Notes: a model not told the origin generated them from the letters alone. DNA of 64,000 nucleotides from Actinomycetota bacterium (GCA_036745475.1 DAIOFZ010000001.1:1211-65210), one strand, 5' to 3'; counted from the first letter of the stretch, positions 32,236 to 58,404 are shown. A program made the numbers and translations.

Positions 32236-33024
32236 ATGCCCCGCGTGCGTCGACTCCTCCCCCTCGTCGCGATCCTCGCCATCGCCGGGGCGGTCTGTTC
32301 GGGTTCGGACGAGCCGCCCCGTACACCGTCCGGAACGATCGCTCCGACGACCACGCAGACCACGCCGTCACCCACACCCAGCGCCGAGCCCTCGATCCCG
32401 GACCCCGGTCCCGCCGAGGATCCCGACGTTCGGCTGCCCGAAGGCATGCCGGCGATCGTGGACGACGCCGACGACCTCGCGCTGATCGCGTCGGGGGACT
32501 TCACCCCGCTCCTTCCCCCCGGTGCGAGCCACGGGAGCCGCGTCGCCCTTCGAGACCCGATCGAGCAGATCGTCCTGACCTGGTCGGACGGGGGCCCGCT
32601 CCGTCGGCGGAACGGGCTCATCGTGTGGCAGCGACCCGAGAACGCGGGCTGGCACGCCGTGTACGCCTTCACGGATCCGGCGCGCTTCGGTGTGTTCGGT
32701 ATCCGCGTCGACGCCGGCGAGCTGACGGATGACGCGATCGCCGACGTCCTGAGCTTCGAGGACGTCGGGGGCAGCGGCGCCTGCGGGACGTACCGTGTGA
32801 TCGCCTCCACCCTGGGCGACGCGAGTGAGATCTTCCGCCGCGACGTGTGCGACACGCAGATCGCGATCTCCGGCGGTGACCTCCGGATCCGCGAGGCCGT
32901 CTTCCACGCAGACGACCCGCATTGCTGCCCGAGCGCGTTCCGCGAGTCGACCTTGCGCTGGAACGGGACCTCGTGGGACGAGGTCTGGTCCGAGGTCGTC
33001 CCGAACGACCTCGGGGGGCGCTGA
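32236..33024 (+). CDS. secreted/lipoprotein-like hypothetical protein
   Basis: A signal peptide is present (LLPLVAILAIAGAVCSGS), followed by a Pro/Thr-rich linker. The C-terminal domain has 6 Cys. Confidence 0.5.
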   Translation: MPRVRRLLPLVAILAIAGAVCSGSDEPPRTPSGTIAPTTTQTTPSPTPSAEPSIPDPGPAEDPDVRLPEGMPAIVDDADDLALIASGDFTPLLPPGASHGSRVALRDPIEQIVLTWSDGGPLRRRNGLIVWQRPENAGWHAVYAFTDPARFGVFGIRVDAGELTDDAIADVLSFEDVGGSGACGTYRVIASTLGDASEIFRRDVCDTQIAISGGDLRIREAVFHADDPHCCPSAFRESTLRWNGTSWDEVWSEVVPNDLGGR

Positions 33025-33181
33025 GCGAACCCTCGAAGGCTCCGCCCCGTCGCCCGGTCGCCCGTCCACCGGTCGACGGACCGCCGCGGAACTCGTGCGG
33101 CGAAGGGCTTACGTCGGCCCCCTGACCGGCCGATACAGGGAGCGATCGCGGCGATCGACGTACGGAAGGCAGGACCTGAGC

Positions 33182-36100
33182 GTGAGCGTTGCCGTTGGAG
33201 CGCGGAGAGTGGCATCCGCGGTGCTCGCACTTGCCCTCGCAGGTGCGGCCGCGCTCGCGTATCTGCAGGCCGGCGAGGTGGACGACCGGCTGTCGCTCGA
33301 AACGCGTCGGACCGCCGAACATGCCGCCGAGGCCGTCGCGTCGAGGCTCACGACCGAGGACGTCGAGCGCCCGATGGGCGGGACCCGGGCCGACGAGATC
33401 TCCTCGTTCGTCGAGCAGCGGCTGCTCGACCCGAGCGAATCGGTCACGATCTGGAGCACCGACGCGGTCGTCGTGTTCGCGGCGGATCCCTCCCTGATCG
33501 GCACCCAGGACGGTCGACTCAGCGCCCAGATCTCGCGTGCCCTCTCGAACGGGACCCAGACCGAGACCAGGGACGGATCCCTGCACGCCTTCGTCGCCGT
33601 CGTGGTGAGTGAGGGGACGCGGCTCGTGGCCGAGGTCATCCGTCCGGACGAGGCCTCGTCTGCCGGTCGGCCCTGGATCTACGCGTCGATCGCCGCCGGC
33701 CTGCTCGCGTTCCTGGCACTGCTCGGGGCCATCCGCACCTCCTCCGGCCGTGAGACCTCTCGATCCGGCGGGTTCGGCGCTGACGACCTACGCCGGGAGC
33801 GCACGACCCTGCTGCAGGTGCAGGGGGCGCTCGAGCTGTCACGGACCGCGGAGGCGAACCTGCGGAGCGAGCTCGAGCGCGTGGCAGGCGAGCTCGCCCA
33901 GACCAAGGACGCGCTGGCCGCCAAGGAGGCCTCCGTCGGTGAGGTCGACTCGAGGATCCGGGCCGCCGAGGAACAGGCGGCGCGCGCCGAGGCCGAGCTC
34001 CGTGCGGGCGTGACCGTCCGCGAGAAGGTCGCTCGGCTGATCGAGACCGAGCTCCAGACCACACGGGCAGAGTTGGCGGTCGTCAAGCACCAGCACGAGG
34101 AGGCGCAGCGGCAGCTCGAGTCGGGGCGGATGGCCGAAGCCGAGCGCGAGGCCGCGGCCGCCGAGCGCGATGCCCTCGCGGCGGAACGCGACGCGATCGC
34201 CGCCGAGCGGGATGCCCTCCGGGGTCTCGACGAACGCCTCCGCGGTGAGCTGGACGCCGCGAGGGCGAACCTCGACATCCTCGGCCGCGAGATGACGGAG
34301 CTCGGCGACCGGTATCAGGAATCGGCTGCTCGAGCCGCCCACGCCGAGGCCAAGGTGCTCGACATGAACGCCGATCTCCGCGAGATCGGAGACCGGCCGG
34401 ACCTCACGAGCGAGCTCCTGCAGACCCGCACCGAGCTCGACAGGACGAAGAAGGAGCTCGGCGCGGCGCTGCAGGAGGTGGAGACGCTCGGGCAGCAGTT
34501 GGCGGTCTCCCGCGGCGACCTCGAGGTCGTTCGCGGGGGGCAGGAGCTCGGCTCCGCGGCGCTCGACGAGGCGCGCGAGAAGCTCTCGGCGTCGAAGGCC
34601 GCGCTCGAGATCGCACGGTCGAACGAGGAGCGAGCCCTGGCCGAAGCGGCCGAGGCGCGCTCCTCGTTCGACGTCATCTCGGCGGATCTGTCGACGTCGC
34701 ACGAGGAAGCGGAAGCGGCCATGGCCGAGGCGACGGCGCTCACCTGGCGGCTGGACGAACAGGTCGTGCGTGCGGCCAGCGCTGAGGCCAGGGTGTCCGA
34801 GCTGTCGCAGCGGGTCACCGAGCTCGAGTCCCGGCCGGACCGCACCCCCGCGCTCGAGGAGGCGAAGGCGGCGCTGGAGACGGCGAAGGATCAGCTGGCG
34901 CATCGCGACGCGCAGTTCGCCGAGGCGCGGAGCGAGCTCGACGCAGTTTGGATGTCGCTGCAGGCCGCCACCGCGAAGACCGACGCGCTCGAGGGCGAGG
35001 TCGAGCGGGCAGAGGCCAGGGCGGCGGAGCTCGCCGCGGAGATCGAACTTCGGGACGCGAGAGGTGCGGAGCTCGGGGGGGAGGTCGGGCGAGCCGAGGC
35101 TCGGGCCCAGGCTGCCGAGGCCCGCGCGATCGATCTCTCCGGCCGGATCGAGGCGGGCGACACCCGTCTGCACGAGCAAGAAGATCGCGCCGAGCGCGCC
35201 GAAGGGCTCGTCACGGAGCTCGCGGCCCGGGCGGAACGAGCGGAGGTCCGGGCGGACGAGATGGCCGAGCGGGCCGAGGCAGCGGAGATCGCCGCCACCC
35301 TCGAGCACGAGAGCCCGGAGCTCGTGGGCGCGCGAGCCGAGGTCGAGAACCTGACGGCCGGGCTCGCTGCCGTCATAAGCGAGCTCGACGCCGCGGCGAT
35401 GTTCGCCAGTGCGCTCGTGCAACGTAACGAGGAGCTCGAGGAGCAGGTGGCGTCGCAGGCCGTCGAGGCCGAGGTCGAAGCCGCCGATGCCCGGGCGCGA
35501 TTGCTCGAGACCCGGGAATCGCTCGCCCGGCTCCAGGAGACCGTCGAGCATCGTGACGAGCTCGGATCCTTCGTCCAGGAGGCCCCGTCGATGACTCCCA
35601 GCGCCGCGACCGAGGTCGCGGACGCGCTCTCGGTCAACGTGAAGCGTTCGCTGTCGGCGATCTTCGAACTCGCCCGAACCCTGTCCACAGGACAGGAGAG
35701 CAAGGACGACGAGCGGTTGCTCTATCAACTGATGACGCAGGCCAAGCGGATGGAGCACGCGATCCGTGACATCTTCGACGCGGATCGGCTCACGCGTGGC
35801 GAGCTCGTGCTCGAGCGCCGCAGCACCGATATCGACGCGCTGGTGCGCCGCGTGGTCAGCGAGTTTCCGTTCGCCGACGACCGCGACCTCGACGTCGCTG
35901 TCGAGCCGGCGACGATCATGGTCGACCGCGTTCGCGTGGAGCGCCTGGTGGACGACCTGCTCACCTCGGTCGTCGGGCGCACCGAGGCCGGTGATCGCAT
36001 CGCGCTCGCCCTCGAACGATCCCCCGACGGCGTGCTCATCTCGGTGGAGGGCGGGACCCCCCTGAACGGGGACGGAACCGCCGAGGCGGCCGCGGCGTTC

Positions 36101-36241
36101 CTGGCCGAGCTCCACGGGGGGTGGGCCAGGGCCGAGCGGCTCTCGGACGGGACGGGGGTGGTCCGGGCGTTCCTGCCCAGCGGTCGGAACGCCGGCACGG
36201 CGGATGGCGCCGATCCCGAGACTGCCGCGGCCCTCGGCTGA
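33182..36241 (+). CDS. membrane-anchored giant coiled-coil protein with a C-terminal degenerate histidine-kinase-like (HisKA/HATPase_c) module
   Basis: The N-terminus has two TM helices (VASAVLALALAGAAALAYL, WIYASIAAGLLAFLALLGAI) flanking an extracytoplasmic domain of about 150 aa. About 700 aa follow with heptad-repeat and AERDA-repeat composition. The C-terminus has an H-box-like SVNVKRSLSAI lacking the His, an N-box-like LVDDLLTSVVGRT, a G1-like ISVEGGTPLNGDG and a G2-like FLAELHGGWARAE. The GTG start at 33182 has a GGAAGG 11 nt upstream. The track ORF start at 32825 overlaps the previous gene. Confidence 0.65.
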   Translation: MSVAVGARRVASAVLALALAGAAALAYLQAGEVDDRLSLETRRTAEHAAEAVASRLTTEDVERPMGGTRADEISSFVEQRLLDPSESVTIWSTDAVVVFAADPSLIGTQDGRLSAQISRALSNGTQTETRDGSLHAFVAVVVSEGTRLVAEVIRPDEASSAGRPWIYASIAAGLLAFLALLGAIRTSSGRETSRSGGFGADDLRRERTTLLQVQGALELSRTAEANLRSELERVAGELAQTKDALAAKEASVGEVDSRIRAAEEQAARAEAELRAGVTVREKVARLIETELQTTRAELAVVKHQHEEAQRQLESGRMAEAEREAAAAERDALAAERDAIAAERDALRGLDERLRGELDAARANLDILGREMTELGDRYQESAARAAHAEAKVLDMNADLREIGDRPDLTSELLQTRTELDRTKKELGAALQEVETLGQQLAVSRGDLEVVRGGQELGSAALDEAREKLSASKAALEIARSNEERALAEAAEARSSFDVISADLSTSHEEAEAAMAEATALTWRLDEQVVRAASAEARVSELSQRVTELESRPDRTPALEEAKAALETAKDQLAHRDAQFAEARSELDAVWMSLQAATAKTDALEGEVERAEARAAELAAEIELRDARGAELGGEVGRAEARAQAAEARAIDLSGRIEAGDTRLHEQEDRAERAEGLVTELAARAERAEVRADEMAERAEAAEIAATLEHESPELVGARAEVENLTAGLAAVISELDAAAMFASALVQRNEELEEQVASQAVEAEVEAADARARLLETRESLARLQETVEHRDELGSFVQEAPSMTPSAATEVADALSVNVKRSLSAIFELARTLSTGQESKDDERLLYQLMTQAKRMEHAIRDIFDADRLTRGELVLERRSTDIDALVRRVVSEFPFADDRDLDVAVEPATIMVDRVRVERLVDDLLTSVVGRTEAGDRIALALERSPDGVLISVEGGTPLNGDGTAEAAAAFLAELHGGWARAERLSDGTGVVRAFLPSGRNAGTADGADPETAAALG

Positions 36242-36255
36242 GCCGAGCGCCCCCC

Positions 36256-38538
36256 CTACACCAGGACCGCGATGCTCCGTCGGCGTCCCACCTTCTGCAC
36301 GGAGATCGTCGCGGGGAACTGATCCTTGACCTGCTCGGCGTGCGTGACCACGAACAGCTGGTGGAACCGCGACGAGAGCCGGGCGAGTGCCTGCACCATC
36401 AGATCCTTCCGCTCCTCGTCCAGCGAGGCGAGCACCTCGTCCAGGACCATCATCCCGACGTCTGCCCCCGACAGGCGTGACAGCTGCGTCGAGATCGCCA
36501 CCCGGAGCGCGAGGTTCGCGAGATCGGTCTCCGAACCGGAGAAGCGATCGATCGCGAAGTACGAGTCCCCGTCGGCGATCTGGATCGTGAGCTTCTCCTC
36601 GTCGACCTTGAGGTCGTCGTACTCGTGGTTCGTGAGCTCGCGGAACAGCGCCTCCGCCTCGCGGGAGAGCTCGGGCCCGATGCGCGCCACCAGATGGTTG
36701 CGGAACCCCTCGAGCAACAGCGCCACCCGCTCGACGTACCGCGCGTCCGAACGCAGCTCGTCGACCCTGGCCTGCGTCTCCTTGGCCTGACGCAACGCGG
36801 CGACGAGGCCGGCCTCCGCCTTCTCGGCGTCCTTCAGGGCGTCGCTCGCCCCGCGTTCGGTCTCCCGCGCCTGATCGAGCGCGGCGATCGCTTCCTCGAG
36901 CTCGTCGTGCAGGCGCTCGTGCGCGATTTCGTCGAACGCAAGCCCCTCGGCCTCCTCCGCCAGCTCGGCGAGCTCGCGGTCGAGGAGTTCTTTCCGCCGC
37001 CGCGCGGCGTCCAGGTCGCGTTCGGCCTGCGCGAGGTGCTGCCGTTCGGTCCGGAGCTCCGCCGCGCGGGTGCCGAGGGTTCGCGCGCGTTCGGCGCTCG
37101 CCCGAAGCTCGTCGAGCTCGGGGACGGCCCCGCCGAAGGGCTCCGACAGCGTGGCCACCTCGGCCGAGAGCGATCCGATCCGCTCGGCGAGCTGCGACCG
37201 GTGCGCGTCCTCTTCTCGCGAGCGCTCTCCCGCCTCGTTCGCGGCGACCTGGCCCTTCTCCGCCCGTGCTCGCTCGGCGAGCGCCTTCTTGACCGCCGCC
37301 GCGGCGGTCGCCGCGGTCCTCTTCGCGCCCGCGACCTCCGCCTTGCAGTGCTTCAGGTACGAGGCGAAGTCGTCTCCCAGCGGGCGGCCGCAGGTGGGGC
37401 AGGGCTGGGTCGGATCGGCTTCCGTCGCGCGCTCGAGCCGCTCGAGGGCCTGCTCCAGGAGCGTCGACCGATGTGCCCGTTCGGCCTCGGCACCGGCGAC
37501 GGCGGACCGAGCGCGTCCGACCGCGCCCGCCGCGGCCTCGAGCGCCGAGAGCACGGCCGCGCGGTCGGTCTGGGGGATCGCGTCCAGCCGCGCCTGTGTC
37601 CGCGCGAGCTCTTCCCCCCGTTCCATCAGGGCGGTGCCGAGCCGCAGCCGATCGTCGATCCCGGTCAGCCCCGCGAGCTCGTCGTCGATGGCGGGCAGCT
37701 CTTCGACCGCGGCGTTCATCCGCTCGACGCGCTCGACCAGCATCTCGAGCTGCTCCGCCGCGTGTTGGCTCTGTTCGGTCTTCGAGCGGAGCTCGACCGT
37801 CAGCTTCTCGATGTGTTGGCGCACGGCGTCCGACCCCGCGAACGCCTTCTTGGCCGCCTTCTCCACGGCGACCGCCTCCTTCAGATGGGCGGCCGCCGCC
37901 TTCGCGAGATGGGTGGCCTCCGTCACCACGTCCTTCGCGGCCTTCAGATCCGCCTCGAGCGCGGCGACGTCGGGAACGGCGCCCGTGAGCTGGTCCGCGC
38001 TCTCCCTGGTCGCCCTCGCCTCGCGCCGCGACGCGTTGCGGGCGTCCTCGACCGGCCGAATCCCCAGCAGACGCAATGCCATCTCCTTGCGTCTGCCCGG
38101 CGTCACGTCCGAGAAGGCGTCGAGCTGCTTCTGCTCGGCGTAGACCGAGGCGCGGAACACCTGCAGGTCCATGTGGAGCAGGCCGCGGATCTCGGCGTCG
38201 ACCTCGCTGGTGCCCGAAGCCAGGGTCACGCCCCCGCCGAACAACTCCGCCTCGGGGGCATGGCCCTTGCCCCGGATCGTCCGCCGGACCTCGTACGGCT
38301 GCCCCGCGTGCTCGAACACGAGCCGGACCTCGCAGTCGGTGAGGACGCCGTGTGTCCGGATCTCCTGCTTCTTGGTCCGGGCGGCATCGACGCCGTAGCA
38401 CGCGAACGCGATGCTCTCCATCAGCGTGGACTTTCCGGCGCCGTTGGCGCCGAAGATCCCGATCACGCGGGCGGGCAGTTCGAGGTCGACCTCCTCGAAG
38501 ACCCGGTAGTTGCGCAGGGAGAGCTCGAGCACCCTCAT
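36256..38538 (-). CDS. sbcC: SbcC/Rad50-family SMC-like ATPase (double-strand break repair)
   Basis: The N-terminal Walker A is MRVLELSLRNYRVF...GANGAGKST. A central coiled coil carries a CxxC zinc hook (PCPTCGRPL). The C-terminal signature and D-loop are SGSETDLANLALRVAI...MMVLDEVLASLD. ATG at 38538 overlaps the sbcD stop (ATGA). The track ORF to 40953 is an antisense-style extension. Confidence 0.85.
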   Translation of the reverse strand: MRVLELSLRNYRVFEEVDLELPARVIGIFGANGAGKSTLMESIAFACYGVDAARTKKQEIRTHGVLTDCEVRLVFEHAGQPYEVRRTIRGKGHAPEAELFGGGVTLASGTSEVDAEIRGLLHMDLQVFRASVYAEQKQLDAFSDVTPGRRKEMALRLLGIRPVEDARNASRREARATRESADQLTGAVPDVAALEADLKAAKDVVTEATHLAKAAAAHLKEAVAVEKAAKKAFAGSDAVRQHIEKLTVELRSKTEQSQHAAEQLEMLVERVERMNAAVEELPAIDDELAGLTGIDDRLRLGTALMERGEELARTQARLDAIPQTDRAAVLSALEAAAGAVGRARSAVAGAEAERAHRSTLLEQALERLERATEADPTQPCPTCGRPLGDDFASYLKHCKAEVAGAKRTAATAAAAVKKALAERARAEKGQVAANEAGERSREEDAHRSQLAERIGSLSAEVATLSEPFGGAVPELDELRASAERARTLGTRAAELRTERQHLAQAERDLDAARRRKELLDRELAELAEEAEGLAFDEIAHERLHDELEEAIAALDQARETERGASDALKDAEKAEAGLVAALRQAKETQARVDELRSDARYVERVALLLEGFRNHLVARIGPELSREAEALFRELTNHEYDDLKVDEEKLTIQIADGDSYFAIDRFSGSETDLANLALRVAISTQLSRLSGADVGMMVLDEVLASLDEERKDLMVQALARLSSRFHQLFVVTHAEQVKDQFPATISVQKVGRRRSIAVLV

Positions 38539-39665
38539 GCGCTCTCGCCGCGCGCGTCCTCGAGGAACCTCGCGCCGAGGGAGACGACGCGCTCGCGTTC
38601 GAGTCCGGCGAGATCCTGGAGCTCGACGTAGGAGACCCACTCCTGCTCGATCGAACCGATCGTCGGGCCGCCCTGCACGGCCATCGCGTCCGCCCCGAGC
38701 TCGGGCTCGACCTGGACCCAGAGCGCGCCGGGCACCGCCTCCTGGAACTGCTCGAGCCCGACCTGCCGGTAGGACGCGGGGTCGACCTCGTTCAGGTACA
38801 CGCGGACGACGGCGCCGTCGGGCGTCCCCTTCGCGGCGCGTTCCACGGCGTCGACCAGCTCGCCCGCCGAGAGGCTTGCCGCCGCGACGGAGACCGTCGC
38901 GAGCGGGCGCTCGTGCGGGTTCTCGATGTGGTCGACAGCCCCCGAGTTCGTGTCGATCACGACGAGGCCCTTCGAGGTCCCCGGCGAGTCGGCGAACGAG
39001 AAGGTGTCGGTCGAGCCCGCGTACCAGGTGCGCCTGGAGATCTTCTGCACCGCGTGGTAGTGGCCGAGGACCACGAGGTCGAACGCTCGGTCGAACGCCG
39101 ACTCCTCGACCTCGAGCTCGTTGATGTCGCGGTACGCACGAGAGGGAAGCGACGTGAGGGCCACGTGGGCGATCAGCAGGTTCGTCGTGTCCGCCCGGAC
39201 CGCGCCCGAGGCCACCTTCAACTGTTCGCGCAGGTCGTCGACCGCGAGCGTCTGCGGAACCGCGTGGACGGCGACCCCCGCGACGTCGGCGCGGACCGCC
39301 TCCATCCGCCACGCGAACGCGACGCCGGGGAAGACCCGTTCGAGCGCGTCGTAGGGCGAGCCCGTCCCGCGGATCCGCGGGGTGTCGTGGTTGCCGCTGA
39401 TCGCTACCCCGCGCAGGCCGGCGTCGTCGAGCCGCTGCAGGCCGGCCAGGACCTGCGCGAACGTCCGATAGGAGGGGCGAGCGTGGTCGAAGATGTCGCC
39501 GAGCCACAGGAATCCGTCGGGCTTCTGGCGGATCGTCTCGTCGACCCCCCACGTGAACGAGCGGAGGAAGTCCTCCTCCCGGACGTTGCGGCCACGGTCG
39601 TCCCGCAGGTGCGCGAGATGCGAACGCCCGAGGTGCGCGTCCCCGAGCGCGACGAGGCGCGCCAT
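38535..39665 (-). CDS. sbcD: SbcD/Mre11-family metallophosphoesterase nuclease
   Basis: The calcineurin-like phosphoesterase motifs are present (LGDAHLG, WLGDIFDH, ISGNHD, VLGHYH). Its start abuts the herA stop. Confidence 0.85.
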   Translation of the reverse strand: MARLVALGDAHLGRSHLAHLRDDRGRNVREEDFLRSFTWGVDETIRQKPDGFLWLGDIFDHARPSYRTFAQVLAGLQRLDDAGLRGVAISGNHDTPRIRGTGSPYDALERVFPGVAFAWRMEAVRADVAGVAVHAVPQTLAVDDLREQLKVASGAVRADTTNLLIAHVALTSLPSRAYRDINELEVEESAFDRAFDLVVLGHYHAVQKISRRTWYAGSTDTFSFADSPGTSKGLVVIDTNSGAVDHIENPHERPLATVSVAAASLSAGELVDAVERAAKGTPDGAVVRVYLNEVDPASYRQVGLEQFQEAVPGALWVQVEPELGADAMAVQGGPTIGSIEQEWVSYVELQDLAGLERERVVSLGARFLEDARGESA

Positions 39666-41294
39666 CTACTCGGTGAACCCCTTCGAGGCGTCCGGGGGCC
39701 GGGGCGGGAGCGGTGACGGCCCGGCGACCGACTTCAGGTAGTCCTCGTACAGGTAGATCTGCGCGGGCAGCGCGAAGGGCGCTTCGAGGTTGGTCACGAT
39801 CGCCTCGCCCGGCATCAGCGTTTGGATCTCGGGCCCGAGGTCGGAGATGTCCTGCTTGGAGCTGCCGCGCAGGATGTTCCGGTCCTTCTCGTCGGCGAGG
39901 CCGAGGATGAAGAACGTGTTGAACTGCGAGAGCAGCTCGTCGTCGATCAGCTTCGGCTGCTGAGAAACGGCGCACAGGCCGACCTTGAACTTCCGTCCCT
40001 CCCGGGCGAGCCGCGGGAACACGTTCTCGTCGGAGCGGGCGACTCGCGACAGCACGCGCTGTGCCTCCTCGAGACCGATCAGCGTCGGCGGCAGCGCCGC
40101 GAACCGGTCTCGATCCTCGAGGAACAGGTTCGCGTACGCATCGAGCACGGTCCGCGTGATCACCGACGCGACGAGGATCTCCTCCATCGACGAGAGCCCG
40201 CTGGTGTCGACGAGCACGCCGAACCCGTCCATCAGCTCGTCGACGATGCGCGCCGACAGCGAGGGCTGCGACGCGTCGCGCGAGATGCACGGCATATCGA
40301 GGATCCGTTGCGCGCGCCGCTGGATCACCTGCATCGTGCTGGTCGCGACGCCGAGGTCCTCGGCGAGCGACGCGACGTCCTGCTCCTCGCCCACCCTGAC
40401 GATCCACTCCTCGTGGAAGTACCGGATCAGCCGGTAGATCGCGTCCTCCTGGGCGTGGCTCCACACGTACGCGGTCTGCAGGTCCCCCTGGGTGAGCTCG
40501 GCGAGCGAGAGCCGGAGCGAGGTCGCGCCCGCCCCCGCGGCACGCGTCGCGTAGACCTTCAGCCGATCCAGCGCCCACGGGTGTGAGCGCAGCCCCTTGC
40601 GCGTCCCGCTCCCGCCCTCGAGGTACTCGCCGTGCGGATCGAACAGCAGGCAGGCGTACCGACCCTGGGACGCGAGGATCTGCCCGGCGAGCACCTTCAT
40701 CAGGTTCGACTTGCCCATACCCGTGGTGGCGAAGACGCCGACGTGCGACGTGAGCGTGTCGCCCTGGACCCCGATCTCGAGGTCGATCGTGTCCTCGCCG
40801 GAGCGGAGCAGGCCGACCCGAACGTCGCCCATGCGCTCGCGCAGGAAGTCGAAGTCCTCGACGGTCGGCGCCGTCACCCTCGCGAACTGCGCCGGGAGCG
40901 ACTTCGGCTTGCGGAACGCGCCCGCCGCGTCGATGTACCCGAGCGGCTGGCACGTCGCGACCTTGTACAGCCGCTGTTCGGGGTCTCGAAGCGTGTACTC
41001 GGTCCCGGCGACGTCGCCCGACATGTACGAGCCCGCGGTGCGTTCGGACCAGGAGGGATCAGAGGAGTCCGAGCCGTAGGTCACCTGGATCACCCGGAAC
41101 AGGAACCGGCGGCCGCGCTCGGGATCCTCGGCCGCCAGCAGCTCGCCGAGGAACAGGTCCGTCCCGTAGAAGGAGCGGAACGTGGACTCGAGGACGTTCC
41201 TCCCGAAGATCCGGCCCTTGTAGCCCCCCGTAGACCGGGGGCTACCGCTCGCGCGTTCGCGCTCGCTCCTTGAGCCCCCCGCGCCCCCCGTCAC
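39666..41294 (-). CDS. herA: HerA-like (DUF87/FtsK-HerA superfamily) hexameric DNA translocase ATPase
   Basis: The P-loop is VFATTGMGKSNLMKVL. The N-terminal barrel-like region is GRIFGRNV...FRVIQV. The C-terminus is AVSQQP...LGLADEKDRNIL. The GTG start at 41294 overlaps the nurA stop (GTGA). Upstream of it the long ORF is R/G-rich non-family sequence. Confidence 0.75.
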   Translation of the reverse strand: MTGGAGGSRSERERASGSPRSTGGYKGRIFGRNVLESTFRSFYGTDLFLGELLAAEDPERGRRFLFRVIQVTYGSDSSDPSWSERTAGSYMSGDVAGTEYTLRDPEQRLYKVATCQPLGYIDAAGAFRKPKSLPAQFARVTAPTVEDFDFLRERMGDVRVGLLRSGEDTIDLEIGVQGDTLTSHVGVFATTGMGKSNLMKVLAGQILASQGRYACLLFDPHGEYLEGGSGTRKGLRSHPWALDRLKVYATRAAGAGATSLRLSLAELTQGDLQTAYVWSHAQEDAIYRLIRYFHEEWIVRVGEEQDVASLAEDLGVATSTMQVIQRRAQRILDMPCISRDASQPSLSARIVDELMDGFGVLVDTSGLSSMEEILVASVITRTVLDAYANLFLEDRDRFAALPPTLIGLEEAQRVLSRVARSDENVFPRLAREGRKFKVGLCAVSQQPKLIDDELLSQFNTFFILGLADEKDRNILRGSSKQDISDLGPEIQTLMPGEAIVTNLEAPFALPAQIYLYEDYLKSVAGPSPLPPRPPDASKGFTE

Positions 41295-42364
41295 CGGTTC
41301 AACACCTCGTGGAAGTCCTGGAACAGCAGCTCGACATCGTCCTCGGCCATCCCGCGACGCGAGAGCGCCTCCCGGAACGCCCGCCGAACGTCCACCACGT
41401 CGTAGCCCGTGACGCGGGCGGCCTGATGCGCCCGAGCGAGCGGGTAGGGGTACCCGACGAACGCGGGGTCGTCCGCGAGCCCGGCGAGCCGGCCGAGCAC
41501 CTCGAGCGCCGGGGCCGGCCCGCGCGCCACGTCTACCCGGAACGCGTGCGCCGCGGTCGGGGCAAGGTGGGCGACGAAGATGTCGCCGACGTACAGCCGG
41601 CCGAACACCGGATCCGTCGAGATCCGCGCCGCCCACCGCGACGGCCCGACCTCCCGGTCGCCGCGGCGCTTGAGCAGCGTCACGAGCGGCGCGTTCCGGC
41701 CCCAGTACAACGTCGACGCCTTGACCACCGCCGCGAGCGACGCGCCGCGCGCCACGGCCTCCTCGTGCACGCGCCGCACGATCTGCTGCGGCACGAGCGG
41801 GCCGCCGTGCAGTGAGCCATCGACCAGCACCAGGTCCCCGGGGGCAGCCTCGCGGACCGTTCGCCCGACCGCTCCCCACTCGGCCCACTCGCGCAAGGCG
41901 TCGACGGGTCTCGGAAGGTCCGGCAGGCGCTCGGGTTCGTACCCGCAGAGCTCGGTGAGCGTGGCCCGGGCGAGCCTGGCCATCTCCTCGGGCTCGACGG
42001 CCCGAACGTCGAGCTGCGGCCGTTCGACGTCCACGGTCCGCCCGTCCTGGAACCGGACCCGGGCGGCCCGGAACGCCGCGACCTGGAACGACCGCCCGTC
42101 GGCCACCGTGCAGGACCCCCCGTCCACGGCCCAGACCGTGCCGGGTTCGGCAGGCGTGACCGGTGAGAGCTCGAACGCGTCGGGATGCCCGGGCACGACG
42201 ACCGCCTCGTCGAGGCCGAGCTGACCCTCGAGCACCCGGATCTCCGAGGCCGGCCGCTCGAGGAGGTCCACCACGAAAGAGGCGGCCGAGTCCAGGTGGT
42301 CACGCTCAACGAGGTCGAGGCTGAGCACGCGAGCCGTTCCCTCCCGTGCCTGAGCCTCCGCCAC
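41291..42364 (-). CDS. nurA: NurA-family 5'-3' nuclease
   Basis: The NurA motif I is TVWAVDGGS, and the later motif is LVLVDGSLHGG. It is the first gene of a four-gene minus-strand operon. Confidence 0.7.
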   Translation of the reverse strand: MAEAQAREGTARVLSLDLVERDHLDSAASFVVDLLERPASEIRVLEGQLGLDEAVVVPGHPDAFELSPVTPAEPGTVWAVDGGSCTVADGRSFQVAAFRAARVRFQDGRTVDVERPQLDVRAVEPEEMARLARATLTELCGYEPERLPDLPRPVDALREWAEWGAVGRTVREAAPGDLVLVDGSLHGGPLVPQQIVRRVHEEAVARGASLAAVVKASTLYWGRNAPLVTLLKRRGDREVGPSRWAARISTDPVFGRLYVGDIFVAHLAPTAAHAFRVDVARGPAPALEVLGRLAGLADDPAFVGYPYPLARAHQAARVTGYDVVDVRRAFREALSRRGMAEDDVELLFQDFHEVLNR

Positions 42365-42411
42365 GTCACGCAGGGTACCGCGGTCCTCGGACGCCCCAGG
42401 GACCCGCTCGG

Positions 42412-43572
42412 TCAGTCGAGCGCCTTCAGAAGCTCCCGGGCGATCACGACGCGCTGGATCTGGTTGGTGCCCTCGTAGATCTGGGTGATCTTCGCGTCGC
42501 GCATGAACCGCTCGACGGGGTACTCACGCATGTAGCCGTAGCCGCCGAGGACCTGCACCGCGTCGGTCGTGATCGACATCGCGGCGTCCGAGGCGAAGCA
42601 CTTCGCGACGCTGGAGAAGTAAGTCATCCGGGGATCGCTCGCGTCGCAGAGGGCGAGCGCCTTGTACACGAGCATGCGCGCGGCCTCGAGCTGCATGGCC
42701 ATGTCGGCGAGCATGAACGAGACGCCCTGGAACTCGGCGACGGGCTTGCCGAACTGGTGCCGCTCGGTCGCGTACCGGCTCGCGACGTCGAGCGCCCCCT
42801 GCGCGATGCCGAGCGCCTGCGCCGCGATCGCGGGTCTCGAGTAGTCGAGGGTCGTCATCGCGTAGCCGAACCCGCTTCCCTCCTCGCCGATCAGCCGATC
42901 GGCCGGGATCGCGGCGTCGGTCAGGATCACCTCGCGGGTCGGCGACCCGCGGATCCCCATCTTGTCCTCCTTGCGCCCGAACTCCACCCCGGGGTCGTCC
43001 CTCATCACGAGGAACGCGGAGACGCCTCTCGATCGCAGCGAGGGATCCCCGGTCGCGAAGACCACGTACGCGTGCGACACGCCGGCGCCGGTGATGAATC
43101 GCTTCGTGCCGTTCAGCACCCACCCCTCGCCGTCGCGCTCGTACCGCGTCGTCATCGCCGCGGGATCCGAACCCGCCCCGGGCTCCGTGAGCGCGTAGGA
43201 CATCAGGAGGTCGCCGCGCGCGACCCCCTGGGTCATGCGCTTGGCTTTCTCGTCGTCGCCGGCGACCACGAGCGGGATCACGCCGAGCTTGGAGACGAGC
43301 GGCGTGAGCGAGACGCCCGCCGAAACACGCGACAGCTCCTCGATGAAGACGCCGAACGCGAGCGACCCACCGCCGGAGCCGCCGTGCTCCTCCGGATAGC
43401 CGACGCCCATCAGGTCGTGCTCGACGAGGAGCTTGTAGAGATCCTCGGGCCACTCGTCGATCTCGTCGATCTCGGCCGCGCGCGGCGCGATGCGTTCGTC
43501 GGCGATCGCTCGGACGAGCGAGCGGAACTCCTCGAGCTCCTCGGGCAACTCGAAGCGCTCGAGATCGCCCAT
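42412..43572 (-). CDS. acyl-CoA dehydrogenase
   Basis: ACAD motifs are present (YALTEPGAGSDPAAM ... QVLGGYGYMREYPVERFMRDAKITQIYEGTNQIQR). The start is ATG at 43572 (MGDLERF), 1 nt after the thiolase stop. Confidence 0.85.
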   Translation of the reverse strand: MGDLERFELPEELEEFRSLVRAIADERIAPRAAEIDEIDEWPEDLYKLLVEHDLMGVGYPEEHGGSGGGSLAFGVFIEELSRVSAGVSLTPLVSKLGVIPLVVAGDDEKAKRMTQGVARGDLLMSYALTEPGAGSDPAAMTTRYERDGEGWVLNGTKRFITGAGVSHAYVVFATGDPSLRSRGVSAFLVMRDDPGVEFGRKEDKMGIRGSPTREVILTDAAIPADRLIGEEGSGFGYAMTTLDYSRPAIAAQALGIAQGALDVASRYATERHQFGKPVAEFQGVSFMLADMAMQLEAARMLVYKALALCDASDPRMTYFSSVAKCFASDAAMSITTDAVQVLGGYGYMREYPVERFMRDAKITQIYEGTNQIQRVVIARELLKALD

Positions 43573-48443: not shown

Positions 48444-50270
48444 CTACCTCGCGGCCGGGTTCCGAGAATCGAGCACGAGCTCGATCTGTTGCATGATCTC
48501 GTCCCCGACGAGCTCGTCCCGGGCGATCAGCGAATCCCGCAGGCCGATCACCACGTCGCGGTTCTCCTCGAGCAGCTTGGTGACCCGCTCCTTCTGCTCG
48601 GTGAGGATCTCCTCGACCCGTGCCTTGCCCTGGCCGTCGGCGAGCACCTTGCCCACGAGGTTCTTGGATCCGATCGGACCCTCCGCGATCGCATCGAACG
48701 ACACGAGCGAGCCCGCCATCCCGAAGGACCCGACCATCTGCGCGGCGAGCGTCGTCGCGTGCTGCAGATCGGAAGCGGGACCGGTCCCACTCTCGCCGAA
48801 GAAGACCTCCTCGGCGACGAGCCCGCCGAGCGCGATCGCGACGCCGGACTCGATCTCGGTGCGCGTGCGCGTGAAGCGCTCCTCCTCGTCCCCGTGCGCG
48901 AGCAGCCCGAGCGCCATCCGCCGTTTGATGATCGAGAGCACCTCGAGGCGCCGGCCCTTTCCGAGGAAGTACGCGACCGTGGCGTGTCCCGCCTCGTGGG
49001 TGGCGACCGAGACGCGGTCGGTCTCGGTGTAGGTGACGGGCTGCTTGAAGCCGAGCTCCTCGGTCAGCTTGGCCTCATGGATGTCCTGCACGTTCATCGC
49101 CGTGCGCCCGCCGCGGAGCGCCATCAGCAGCGCCTCGTCCAGCAGGTGCTCGATCATCACCGGGGTGTAGCCGAACGTCTCGTGGGCCAGGTCCTCACGC
49201 GTGTGGTCGTCGTCGAGCACTTGGTGGTGGTTCTTGCGGTCGAGGAAGAAGTCGATCAGCTCGCGACGGCCCGACTTCGACGGGAGGTCGAAGTAGAGCC
49301 GGCGGTCGAAGCGCCCCGGCCGGAGCAGCGCCGGGTCGAGGTTGTCGGCTCGGTTCGTCGCCGCGATCAACAGGATGTTGCTGTACGTAGGCTTCGCCGC
49401 GGGGATCCGCTGCTCGGGCTTGCGGAAACCGTTCACCCACTCGATCATCCGCGCCTTGAACCGCGCACCGAACGGCGGCTGGTCGAAGGACTGCATCTGG
49501 ATCAGCAGCTCGTTCACCATGCCCGAGCCGCCGGCGCCCATGAACGACGATGCCACGCGCCCGAGTCCGGTCGGATCCGGGCTCGCGTTCATCCCCCCGC
49601 GCTCGCCCCCGATCGCGTCGATCTCCTCGATGAACCCGATCGCACCCCCTTCCTTGCGCGCGAGCTTGCGCAGGCGGCGGAAGAACGAGCGGATCTTTGC
49701 GTTGGTCATCCCGAACCACATCGACTGGAACGCGGGCGCGGCGCTGAACAGGAACGGTACGCCGGCCTGCTTGGCCATCGCCTTGGCCAGGTAGGTCTTG
49801 CCGGTGCCGGGAGGGCCTTCGAACAGCATCCCGCGACGGGGGTTGCCGCCCAGCTCGTCGCGGAACGTCGCGTATCCCAGGAACACGTCGAGCGTTCGCC
49901 CGACCTCGTCGACCTGGTTGTCGAGGCCCCGGACCTCGTCCAACCCGACCTCGATCTCCTCCGGCCGCACGATCTGGTGGGGGGATCGGCCGCTGAACAG
50001 CGGCATCGCCATCATCGCGACGATCATGATCATGATCAGGACGATCGGGGCGAAGATGATCGCCTCGGGGCCGAGCGTCGGCATCTTGAATGGGTTGTCG
50101 GTGAGATAGCGGTACCAGAGGTACGCATCGAACAGCAGCAGCACGACGATGAGCCGTGCCAGGCGGCGCTTGCGCGTCTTCTCGCGGACTTTGGAGACGT
50201 CTGCCCGGCCCTGCGCTGCTACGTCCGAACCGTGGAGCACGGATGCGGTCGATCGGCTCGTCTGCTTCAC
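48444..50270 (-). CDS. FtsH-like AAA+ ATPase / M41 zinc metalloprotease (no periplasmic domain)
   Basis: Two N-terminal TM helices are separated by only about 12 aa. The Walker A is GPPGTGKTYLAKAMA. The Walker B-like motif is GFIEEIDAIGG, with an insertion of about 35 aa before the sensor-1 region (LLIAATNRADNLDPALLRPGRFDRRLYF). The protease motif is HEAGHATVAYFLG. Confidence 0.8.
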   Translation of the reverse strand: MKQTSRSTASVLHGSDVAAQGRADVSKVREKTRKRRLARLIVVLLLFDAYLWYRYLTDNPFKMPTLGPEAIIFAPIVLIMIMIVAMMAMPLFSGRSPHQIVRPEEIEVGLDEVRGLDNQVDEVGRTLDVFLGYATFRDELGGNPRRGMLFEGPPGTGKTYLAKAMAKQAGVPFLFSAAPAFQSMWFGMTNAKIRSFFRRLRKLARKEGGAIGFIEEIDAIGGERGGMNASPDPTGLGRVASSFMGAGGSGMVNELLIQMQSFDQPPFGARFKARMIEWVNGFRKPEQRIPAAKPTYSNILLIAATNRADNLDPALLRPGRFDRRLYFDLPSKSGRRELIDFFLDRKNHHQVLDDDHTREDLAHETFGYTPVMIEHLLDEALLMALRGGRTAMNVQDIHEAKLTEELGFKQPVTYTETDRVSVATHEAGHATVAYFLGKGRRLEVLSIIKRRMALGLLAHGDEEERFTRTRTEIESGVAIALGGLVAEEVFFGESGTGPASDLQHATTLAAQMVGSFGMAGSLVSFDAIAEGPIGSKNLVGKVLADGQGKARVEEILTEQKERVTKLLEENRDVVIGLRDSLIARDELVGDEIMQQIELVLDSRNPAAR

Positions 50271-52589: not shown

Positions 52590-53522
52590 TCAGGGCGGCT
52601 GTCGGGCCACACTGGACGGGCAGGTGAGCGAGCGCGGGCACCACATGCAGTAGGGGCCGGGCGCGAGCGTCCCCGGGCGGCCGGCGGCGGAGGCCGCCGC
52701 GGCGCGGATCGCCTCGATCACGCGGTCCGCGGCGCGGTCCAGGACGCGTTCGTCGACGTCCTCCGCCTGCCACTCGCCCGAATCCAGGTACAGCGTCGCG
52801 ACGCGGTACGGTGGGATCCCGAACCGCAGCCCCAGCAACAGCGCGTAGAAGCGCATGTCCTCGGCGTGCTCGGGCCACGCGCGTCCCGTCTTCAGGTCGA
52901 TCGCGAGCCGCGTGGCCCGGACCGTCCCTTCCGCCCGTCCCGAACCGAGGACCAGGTCGAGCTGCCCCGACAGGACGACCGTCCCCCCCAGGAGCTCGAC
53001 GCGCACGTGCCATTCGGTGGAGGGCGCGAGCTCGCGCCGCATCCGCCTGAGCGGCGGCATCGTCGAGCGGAACAGCTCGAGGGTCTTCGCCGCGTCCATC
53101 AGGCTCTCGTCCCGGCGCAGCGCGTCGAGGCCGTCCCAGTACGCGGAGAAGGCGCCGTCCTCGGTCAGCCGCTCGGCCGCCTGCTCGACGAGATCGTGCG
53201 GTCCGCGCTCCTCACGACCCGCCACCTCGAGCTCGATCGCCTTGTGCGCGAGCCGGCCCGTCGCCGTGCGGGCCGAGAACGCGAACGGCGCGCGCTCGCC
53301 CGCACGGACCGCGTCGAACAATCCCGGGCAGCGGTTGAGGTCGCTCAGATTGGACTTGCCGAGCCACAGCGGCTCCGGCGGCTCGAACGCGCGAGCCGCC
53401 TCTTCGATCCTGTCGCGCACCCGAAGCACCCCGTCGACCGCGAACACCGGCCGTTCGTCCGTACCGATCAGGCCATCGAGCGTTCGGCGCTGGGCGGGCG
53501 TGAGCTCCGCGGTCGCCTGCAT
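52590..53522 (-). CDS. PD-(D/E)XK-family nuclease with Cas4/RecB-type 4-Cys cluster (standalone)
   Basis: The first Cys is NRCPG. The catalytic core is AIDLKTGRAWPEH...RFYALLL (D/E-x-K). The C-terminus is YCMWCPRSLTC. The start is ATG at 53522. The track ORF to 54110 adds R/G-rich sequence antisense to the neighbouring gene. Confidence 0.6.
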   Translation of the reverse strand: MQATAELTPAQRRTLDGLIGTDERPVFAVDGVLRVRDRIEEAARAFEPPEPLWLGKSNLSDLNRCPGLFDAVRAGERAPFAFSARTATGRLAHKAIELEVAGREERGPHDLVEQAAERLTEDGAFSAYWDGLDALRRDESLMDAAKTLELFRSTMPPLRRMRRELAPSTEWHVRVELLGGTVVLSGQLDLVLGSGRAEGTVRATRLAIDLKTGRAWPEHAEDMRFYALLLGLRFGIPPYRVATLYLDSGEWQAEDVDERVLDRAADRVIEAIRAAAASAAGRPGTLAPGPYCMWCPRSLTCPSSVARQPP

Positions 53523-53549
53523 CCGGCGATGGTAGGAGTAGCCACCGAC

Positions 53550-54104
53550 ATGCCCGAGACGCCCGACGACATCCTGCGCGCCCTCGCCGACCCCGAGCGG
53601 CTGGCGATCGCGGGACACCTCGCCCGCTCGGACGCGGGGTCGGCCGAGCTCGCGGACACCCTGGACCTCCCTCTGCCGCGGCTGCGCAAGCATCTGAACC
53701 GCCTCGTCGCCGCCGGCATCGTCCGCCTGAAGGACGATCGCCGGACCTATCGGGTCGATGCCGAGACCCTCCGCCGGGCGGCCGAGCAGGTCGGGCCGCC
53801 GCGAGACGCCGGGCTCGCGCTCGGTGCGGCGAGCGAGGAGGAGGAGGCCGTGCTGAGAGCGTTCTTCCGCGACGGGCACCTGACCGAGGTGCCCGCCAAG
53901 GAGTCGAAGCGACGCATCGTGCTCGGACGGATCGCGCTCGAGTTCGAGCCCGGGGTGGACTACGACGAGGCGACCGTGAACGCGATCGTCGGACGCTTCT
54001 CCACCGACCACGCCGCGCTCCGCCGCCACCTCGTCGACGAGGGGTTCCTCGACCGTGATCACGGCCGCTACTGGCGCACCGGTGGACGCGTCGACCTCTC
54101 GTAG
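53550..54104 (+). CDS. ArsR-type HTH regulator with C-terminal DUF2087-like domain
   Basis: The ArsR-like wHTH is [52 protein letters not shown]. The C-terminal domain is [30 protein letters not shown]. It is divergent from the nuclease gene. Confidence 0.55.
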
Positions 54105-54169
54105 GCCCACCGGAGCCCGGCCCGATGCATGCCGGGCCGAAGGGGCGCTCCGCTAGACTCCGGAGGATC

Positions 54170-58337: not shown

Positions 58338-58404
58338 CCCGCCTCCGGGTAGCCTTGTCGGAGGTCAAGCGTACAATCGCGCAAACCGATCCGGAGAGCG
58401 GCGC

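Follow-up and report, generated by a model that had tools for sequence, protein, structure and literature searches.

Can an actinobacterium carry, in a single operon, the four genes which in archaea serve to resect DNA ends at breaks? The question is raised by a locus in a stretch of 64,000 nucleotides from an Actinomycetota bacterium (GCA_036745475.1, DAIOFZ010000001.1:1211-65210), called the window in the following, where nurA, herA, mre11 (sbcD) and rad50 (sbcC) follow each other on the minus strand. A preliminary description, made from the sequence alone, took these genes for an archaeal-style end-resection operon or, alternatively, for an anti-phage nuclease module. We consider it probable that the locus is a chromosomal, vertically inherited operon for a complete archaeal-type machine which processes the ends of DNA double-strand breaks (DSBs). 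The four genes can be identified, their catalytic residues are intact, and their order and junctions are conserved in relatives, as is a promoter-like element upstream of nurA; we infer a single transcript, its induction by DNA damage, the formation of a complex and the resection activity.

The classical archaeal gene order is herA-mre11-rad50-nurA. The archaeal four-gene operon is known in Sulfolobus and Pyrococcus (Constantinesco et al., 2004, as cited in PMC9960219), archaeal HerA-NurA cooperates with Mre11-Rad50 in resection (PMC3326311, PMC4351679), and the Mre11 protein of S. acidocaldarius binds HerA (PMC2288612). In the usual picture bacteria resect via RecBCD, AddAB or AdnAB (PMC7752040). 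It should be noted that the NurA-HerA pair of D. radiodurans resects DNA ends (PMC9960219).

The four open reading frames (ORFs) are contiguous and co-oriented (Table 1), and the coordinates and junctions given for them in the preliminary description proved exact to the base in a script check. The nurA stop and the herA start share GTGA (41294-41291), the herA stop TAG (39668-39666) directly abuts the mre11 ATG (39665-39663), the mre11 stop and the rad50 start share ATGA (38538-38535), and rad50 ends with TAG at 36258-36256. Every motif named earlier was found at its place in the translations: VWAVDGGS from residue 77 of NurA, the P-loop FATTGMGKSNL from residue 188 of HerA, GDAHLG, GDIFDH and GNHD from residues 8, 56 and 91 of Mre11, and GANGAGKST and CPTCGRP from residues 30 and 380 of Rad50. 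The length of Rad50 has to be corrected to 760 residues, the earlier 761 having included the stop codon. As to the starts, herA has no alternative start codon ahead of residue 34, a later start would remove the conserved N-terminal YKGRIFG (residues 25-31), and the -4 overlap between nurA and herA is found again in many relatives. For nurA many gene callers choose an internal GTG 12 codons downstream, which gives homologues of 345 residues. The GTG at 42364 is favoured by the conserved promoter-like element treated below, whose end lies 7 nucleotides (nt) before this codon.

Table 1. Features of the window treated in the text; positions are counted from the first nucleotide of the window.
Feature	Position	Strand	Remarks
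nurA	41291-42364	minus	357 aa, GTG start; NurA-family 5'-3' nuclease by homology
herA	39666-41294	minus	542 aa, GTG start; HerA/FtsK-superfamily hexameric ATPase-translocase
mre11/sbcD	38535-39665	minus	376 aa, ATG start; Mre11-type metallophosphoesterase nuclease
rad50/sbcC	36256-38538	minus	760 aa, ATG start; SMC-like ABC ATPase with central zinc hook
Promoter-like element GTCCGAG-gaccgcgg-TACCCT	42372-42392	minus	followed by 7 nt and nurA GTG 42364
RecA-NDp-type motif aTGTCGGTG-gctactcc-TACCAT	53549-53529	minus	perfect match; 6 nt before ATG 53522
PD-(D/E)XK nuclease-superfamily gene	52590-53522	minus	310 aa; PF12705, E=5e-14
Third RecA-NDp-like site tTGTCGGAG-gtcaagcg-TACAAT	58357-58377	plus	spacer after 3-hydroxyacyl-CoA dehydrogenase gene

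The four products had been assigned to their families from motifs, and these assignments are borne out by searches with profile hidden Markov models (HMMs), against PDB sequences and for folds; the HMM check recovered both NurA and HerA. On NurA the profile PF09376 scores 40.3 bits (cut-off 21, E=3.2e-10), the match covering only profile positions 2-139 of 254, and D81, E162, D182 and H352 are invariant in an alignment of 25 homologues. A single-sequence search of the PDB with NurA gave no match; a profile built from 25 sequences found S. solfataricus NurA (2YGK, 2e-5) with the DGGS, DGSL and GYPYPL blocks aligned. The AlphaFold2 (AF2) model of NurA, with a predicted local distance difference test score (pLDDT) of 74.7 and a predicted template modelling score of 0.76, has the RNase H-like NurA fold. 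Its top three Foldseek matches are the NurA structures 2YGK (5e-10), 7F6D_G from D. radiodurans and 3TAI from P. furiosus, and the EndoV and PIWI folds rank after these. Homologues are labelled 'DNA double-strand break repair nuclease NurA' by NCBI and 'NurA domain' elsewhere.

HerA is matched by PF01935 over the full length of the profile (positions 2-220 of 220, E=8e-23). Its Walker A residues G192, G194 and K195, its Walker B residues E409 and E410, and R434/K435 are invariant in homologues, which public pipelines name 'DNA helicase HerA-like ATPase'. The best PDB sequence match is S. solfataricus HerA (4D2I, 3.6e-20). In NCBIfam the archaeal repair models lead with 84 and 80 bits, and the anti-phage HerA models reach 55 and 45 bits; the 84 and 80 bits are to be compared with equivalog cut-offs of 800 and 970 (NF040937 and NF040819), and the protein is classed as a member of the HerA family, not as an equivalog of its archaeal models. 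For HerA the AF2 model was made from a shallow alignment and is poor (pLDDT 54.6). The top 50 Foldseek matches of this poor model are all HerA structures, with alignments of about 450-570 columns and low template modelling scores, and the model cannot separate repair HerAs from defence HerAs or settle whether a HAS-barrel is present. A HAS-barrel is not matched in Pfam, and the beta-strands modelled at residues 27-121 have a pLDDT below 60.

For Mre11 the Metallophos profile PF00149 gives E=7e-10 and all five Mre11 motifs (DxH, GD, GNHD, H, GHxH) are present; D9, H11, D57, N92, H93, H167 and H204 are invariant among homologues and H202 is nearly so. The best NCBIfam models are archaeal ones (Sulfolobus and Haloarchaea, about 60 bits) followed by TIGR00619 (sbcD). 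All remain below their cut-offs, with 59.8 bits against 500 for the archaeal equivalog and 53.3 against 77.65 for TIGR00619, so that Mre11 is to be placed as a divergent member of the wider Mre11/SbcD group. Its best PDB matches are the M. jannaschii Mre11 structures 3AUZ/3AV0 (about 1e-7). The sequence is identical to NCBI HKI28150.1, annotated 'DNA repair exonuclease' on a 67-kb contig of a metagenome-assembled genome (MAG), and the 90% cluster of this protein includes members labelled Gaiella sp. (Thermoleophilia, Gaiellales).

Rad50 matches AAA_23, SMC_N and SbcC_Walker_B of Pfam, SMC_N and AAA_23 above their cut-offs. The zinc hook C380-P-T-C383 lies at the midpoint of the protein and is invariant in 19 homologues, and so are K36 (Walker A), Q136 (Q-loop), S667-G668-x-E670 (signature), D700-E701 (Walker B), D707 (D-loop) and H733 (H-loop). 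In NCBIfam the archaeal model PRK03918 comes first with 138 bits (equivalog cut-off 700) against 95.6 bits (cut-off 478.5) for the bacterial sbcC model TIGR00618, and the best PDB match is M. jannaschii Rad50 (3AUX, 4e-22). Public pipelines call the homologues of the two proteins 'DNA repair protein SbcD/Mre11' and 'DNA repair protein SbcC/Rad50'. The earlier opinion that SbcC stands nearer to the archaeal protein than to that of E. coli is right, and can be extended to Mre11, in so far as the archaeal NCBIfam models and the M. jannaschii and P. furiosus chains in the PDB come out best; the scores are, however, far under the equivalog cut-offs. Because of these low scores the products are to be regarded as members of broad families and not of any curated archaeal or bacterial equivalog. 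All four look functional, and their catalytic and nucleotide-binding residues are invariant down to homologues of 25-35% identity.

To follow the cluster in other genomes, one genome per GTDB species was scanned with a HerA profile. At least 592 loci matched, and the best 80 were examined with the four window proteins by tblastn, the gene order being counted only in the 47 loci with sufficient flank. By HerA identity the best 80 loci comprise the clade to which the window belongs (75-96%), another clade of actinobacteria (about 60%), many Acidimicrobiales/Acidimicrobiia (49-55%) and Thermoplasmata archaea (46-49%). The homologues of HerA and NurA with 75-98% identity were found in metagenomes of soil and sediment and in MAGs labelled Actinomycetota. 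The order nurA-herA-mre11-rad50 is present in 44 of the 47 loci, among them every bacterial one (43/43, all in the same orientation), and this neighbourhood check excludes the chance adjacency which the preliminary description had left as a way out. Of the four archaeal loci, all from Thermoplasmata, one shows the complete series in the same order, the other three nurA-herA only. The junctions are mostly between -4 and +30 nt, and the close clade repeats the -4, 0, -4 pattern of the window.

Across the relatives the divergence of the four proteins runs parallel: judged by best-segment identities, HerA falls from 96 to 49%, NurA from 89 to 31%, Mre11 from 86 to 35% and Rad50 from 79 to 33%. The G+C content is about 70% throughout the window, and that of the cluster equals that of its flanks. 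This parallel divergence and equal base composition fit a chromosomal cluster that has been inherited vertically for a long time; its genes have not come together by chance, nor do they form an island of recent date. The proposal of an operon was likewise strengthened by the strictly conserved order and tight junctions, and consensus promoters or terminators were not found inside the cluster. It should be noted that these consensus scans (sigma-70 promoters and intrinsic terminators, 35800-43000) are uninformative for an actinobacterium of 70% G+C.

The cluster falls into two halves. Where a locus includes the nurA side, nurA and herA are nearly always neighbours, and in ten loci (one of the close clade and nine of Acidimicrobiales type) the cluster is interrupted, always between herA and mre11 and never within a pair. 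The distance to the Thermoplasmata counterparts is also much smaller for HerA and NurA than for Mre11 and Rad50, HerA having 46-49% identity as compared to 28% for Mre11 and 26% for Rad50 (the latter two figures from a single locus, L077). The operon is best seen, as far as gene order and identities tell, as nurA-herA plus mre11-rad50 kept adjacent. The genes inserted between herA and mre11 were considered as a fifth component and rejected as heterogeneous (aminotransferase, META-domain, NUDIX, acyl-CoA dehydrogenase and haem-oxygenase-like genes); the sole recurrent insert is an opposite-strand gene with a NERD (nuclease-related) domain in three Acidimicrobiales loci (L033:12914-13858(-), L063:2803-3537(-) and L064:12544-13266(-)).

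A neighbour-joining tree of HerA (508 columns, no support values) joins the three actinobacterial groups into one clade with a Thermoplasmata group as sister and the Bacillota sequences outside, and this sister position suggests an old transfer between Thermoplasmata and Actinomycetota, in either direction. The HerA of one MAG labelled Actinomycetota (UBA9087, DNCG01000002.1) groups with the archaea; either faulty binning or a separate transfer may account for this. Three loci give tblastn matches fragmented by premature stops: L062 (CAVYTE010000012.1) in all four proteins, L041 in Mre11 and Rad50, and L045 in HerA, Mre11 and Rad50. The fragments of L062 differ widely in identity (for example NurA 85%, HerA 61%). 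Behind the fragmentation may lie indel errors of the assemblies or pseudogenisation.

The same four-gene order was found in a protein search of plasmid records on two Bacillota megabase replicons, with HerA identities of 31-34%; the remaining HerA matches in these records are enterobacterial defence-type HerAs below 30% identity. In Pontibacillus sp. (NZ_CP062975.1, 241584-257146) the genes are annotated NurA, ATP-binding protein, metallophosphoesterase and SMC family ATPase. This replicon and that of Priestia megaterium (pFDU301A) measure 0.9-1.08 Mb and are filed as plasmids. The Pontibacillus cluster lies just downstream of gyrB-gyrA and adjoins murA and thymidine kinase, so this 'plasmid' looks like a chromid or a part of the chromosome.

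The promoter-like element upstream of nurA (Table 1) resembles the RecA-NDp promoter, an actinobacterial LexA/RecA-independent damage promoter with the consensus tTGTCRgtg-8 nt-TannnT (PMC5656591), a motif to which the activator PafBC binds in vivo (PMC6789036, PMC8223512). Like these promoters it has a GTC-containing box, a spacer of 8 nt and TAnnnT, directly upstream of repair genes. Spacer and -10 are exact; the box is cGTCCGAG in the window, and relatives show GTCGGAG, TGTCGGAA or TGTCCGTT. In an alignment of close relatives the block upstream of nurA is conserved also next to a different upstream gene. All 19 usable close-clade loci have the element, as such or slightly varied (TGTCGGAA, TGTCCGTT, AGTCGGAA, AGTCGGCC). 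The strict pattern occurs 14 times on the plus strand in 1.06 Mb of related loci, and 12 of these sites lie inside the 280-nt windows upstream of nurA. The start codon always follows the -10 by 6-8 nt and is in frame with nurA in 13 of 14 regular-expression matches.

Because the -10 is placed so close to the start codon, the nurA mRNA would be leaderless, and the operon appears to have its own promoter and probably belongs to a DNA-damage regulon. Damage-type regulation is typical of a repair function. A LexA SOS-box search of the window (CGAAC-N4-GTTCG, at most 2 mismatches) gave 123 matches against 66 expected, none of them exact and none in the 47-nt spacer upstream of nurA, and regulation by LexA was dropped for these reasons.

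In the window the pattern GTCSGNG-N8-TANNNT occurs three times, with 0.54 occurrences expected. The two other copies are perfect or near-perfect, TGTCGGTG-N8-TACCAT and TTGTCGGAG-N8-TACAAT. The perfect one precedes the PD-(D/E)XK nuclease gene, which supports the reading of the operon as a DSB-processing unit; this gene (52590-53522) is probably a leaderless, damage-inducible gene for a RecB/Cas4-like nuclease. A longest-ORF call (52590-54110) would overextend it. The site at 58357-58377 precedes a small membrane ORF, which has hydrophobic segments and begins near GTG 58407.

The mechanism which we propose is derived from the homologous enzymes of archaea and of Deinococcus (PMC3326311, PMC4351679, PMC2288612, PMC9960219). 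Transcription would most likely start at the nurA GTG itself, from a PafBC-type, LexA-independent damage-like promoter, and give a leaderless mRNA. The three downstream cistrons would be translationally coupled via their overlapping or abutting stop and start codons, and the four subunits would be made together. At a broken end a dimer of Mre11 and a dimer of Rad50 would bind and clean the end by ATP-driven action as an endonuclease and as a 3'-5' exonuclease. A HerA hexamer (HerA6) would push the duplex into a NurA dimer (NurA2) for long-range degradation of the 5' strand, and the resulting 3' single-stranded tail would be used for the loading of RecA.

A wider hypothesis, which we put forward tentatively and regard as rather doubtful, is that Gaiellales-like Actinomycetota have wired an archaeal-related HerA-NurA and Mre11-Rad50 into the LexA-independent PafBC/RecA-NDp regulon as a leaderless four-cistron operon; the Thermoplasmata outgroup would imply an old inter-domain transfer, and the machine would be a principal pathway of DSB resection in these bacteria, which are abundant in soil, alongside or instead of RecBCD or AdnAB.

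Some observations do not favour a co-regulated DSB-resection operon. According to the summary given in PMC5448004, nurA and herA mutants of Deinococcus and Thermus gave mixed phenotypes. The inserts found between herA and mre11 consist of 0.9-7.5 kb of unrelated genes, often on the opposite strand, and show that the two halves can work without co-transcription. As to regulation, the nurA box of the window is degenerate compared with the mycobacterial consensus (GTCCGAG versus TGTCRGTG), and in the distant Acidimicrobiales-type clades the motif is not generally detectable (3 of 46 loci, about 0.8 expected by chance).

How does the locus compare with the systems already known? With the archaeal operon it shares the same four families in one co-oriented tight cluster, archaeal structures and models as the best sequence matches and, by analogy, the same expected mechanism, in which Mre11-Rad50 would recognize the end and HerA-NurA would resect it. 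It differs from it in order, which is nurA-herA-mre11-rad50 here and in all relatives, with nurA not the last gene, and in host, which is a soil actinobacterial MAG of mesophilic type whereas the archaeal hosts are thermophilic. HerA scores 84 bits against the archaeal equivalog cut-off of 800, and the promoter appears to be of bacterial (actinobacterial) type with a probably leaderless transcript. The preliminary description had said that the cluster mirrors the archaeal module; this holds for the presence of the four families together, while the order is that of the bacterial nurA-herA pair followed by mre11-rad50.

The nurA-herA units of Deinococcus and Thermus also have nurA before herA with overlapping stop and start codons in a chromosomal metabolic context, and D. 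radiodurans NurA is the second-best fold match of the window NurA. In Oceanithermus profundus sbcD and sbcC follow nurA-hepA, exactly as they follow herA in the window, and Thermus has the pair only (Blesa et al., PMC5448004). D. radiodurans and Thermus belong to another phylum and have no adjacent mre11-rad50. The genome scan gave at least 592 matches, and the best 80 of them include no Deinococcota; the nearest HerA outgroup of the window's clade is Thermoplasmata (46-49%). D. radiodurans HerA is absent from the PDB sequence matches at E<=0.001. The RecA-NDp-like element that precedes the window cluster is not reported in Deinococcus, Thermus or Oceanithermus.

E. coli SbcCD likewise consists of a metallophosphoesterase and a zinc-hook SMC-like ATPase from adjacent genes, and its SbcD chains 4LTY and 6S6V are among the PDB matches. 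The window Rad50 is shorter and has shorter coiled coils, SbcC is not among its PDB matches at E<=1e-8, and in the window the nuclease gene precedes the ATPase gene and both are linked to nurA-herA.

The rarity of this arrangement in bacteria was overstated at first: the order had been noted in O. profundus (PMC5448004), is found in Bacillota, and occurs in all 43 bacterial relatives. We found no paper describing the cluster in Actinomycetota. The arrangement is thus not new as a kind, and its breadth in Actinomycetota has seemingly not been written up. The presumed roles of the four proteins are unchanged by the locus. Together with its relatives it shows the four-gene module as a stable, vertically inherited one in large uncultured actinobacterial lineages (Gaiella-like and Acidimicrobiia), and the module occurs also in Bacillota; the conserved promoter of damage type, presumed leaderless, amounts to a concrete prediction on regulation, and these organisms offer a bacterial setting for a genetic test of the coupling between the sub-complexes.

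The division of the cluster between herA and mre11 is what one would look for if two independent modules were merely neighbours, nurA-herA having a role of its own (in fork processing or growth, or by stimulating RecJ as in Deinococcus) and mre11-rad50 being a classical SbcCD that cleaves hairpins and protein-blocked ends, with no functional coupling between them. The position of all ten interruptions speaks for such independence, as do the three of four Thermoplasmata loci which have nurA-herA without adjacent mre11-rad50, and the unequal identities to Thermoplasmata suggest partly separate histories. We nevertheless hold it to be unlikely. The adjacency in the same order has been kept over deep divergence in all 43 bacterial loci with sufficient flank and recurs independently in Bacillota and Oceanithermus (PMC5448004), the herA-mre11 gap in the window's clade is -1 to +40 nt with one locus (L014, a 1.2-kb insert) as the exception, and archaeal Mre11 physically binds HerA (PMC2288612).

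Of the other two explanations, a HerA-based anti-phage module comparable to Sir2-HerA (Nezha), DUF4297-HerA, TdpAB or Lamassu, which has recruited an Mre11/Rad50-like nuclease, is in our judgement very improbable, and we give hardly any credence to the idea that HerA is mainly a DNA pump for transfer or chromosome segregation (cf. FtsK-like HerA and Thermus HepA/TdtA transjugation) with the nucleases as accessories. The defence systems share with the window the hexameric ATPase fold of HerA, which in the poor HerA model fits repair HerAs hardly better than it fits defence HerAs and TdpA. TdpB is NurA-like, and the NurA profile weakly touches it (E=0.16). PADLOC gave partial matches at superfamily level, to HerA (78 bits), LmuB (70 bits), mad3 and mad8, on HerA and Rad50 only; those to defence HerAs extend over portions of the protein, for the most part its C-terminal ATPase region, and NurA and Mre11 have no PADLOC match. 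Adjacent to the cluster no Sir2, DUF4297, dnd or other effector gene was found, and no relative of HerA occurs in 50,697 phage records. Nor does the distribution resemble that of patchy defence islands, since every related genome examined has the cluster, which diverges with its host and looks vertically inherited. Repair-type HerA models outscore the anti-phage ones, the promoter resembles a DNA-damage promoter, and the surroundings are of the housekeeping kind; the anti-phage alternative of the preliminary description is left with no support. [quoted passage not shown] What tells against it is the strict linkage to three proteins which process DNA ends; there are no conjugation or secretion genes nearby, and the close plasmid-borne relatives occur only on megabase replicons beside gyrA/gyrB and not in transfer regions.

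All other nameable genes of the window are housekeeping genes, with no mobile-element or defence genes among them; they include genes for an F420 ligase, cell-wall glycosyltransferases, LytR, acetyl-CoA synthetase, aconitase, beta-oxidation enzymes, an FtsH-like protease and a carboxyltransferase. The related locus L001, on a 1.6-Mb contig, shares the thiolase, acyl-CoA dehydrogenase, thioesterase and aconitase neighbours. In L001 two other genes, one of them divergent, lie between the acyl-CoA dehydrogenase gene and nurA, and the four-gene unit is on this account not considered a part of the upstream fatty-acid operon.

Downstream of rad50 a convergent ORF (32825-36241, plus strand) has its stop 14 nt from the rad50 stop and no Pfam match. 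It has a predicted membrane anchor near residue 130, about 600 residues of Ala/Glu/Arg-rich coiled coil (with weak LmuB/JetC matches) and a C-terminal region resembling a histidine-kinase ATPase; its Arg/Ser-rich first 120 or so codons are probably non-coding. The ORF is kept in convergent position in the nearest relatives (L002, L004, L006 and L062) and is absent from L001. ARAGORN calls a 96-nt tRNA-Arg(CCG) at 32967-33062 (plus strand), probably a false positive; Rfam has no tRNA at gathering score, and no other RNA family, within the window. About 5 kb upstream of the operon a DinB-family gene (PF05163, 47794-48294, minus strand) adjoins the gene for an FtsH-like AAA protease (48444-50270).

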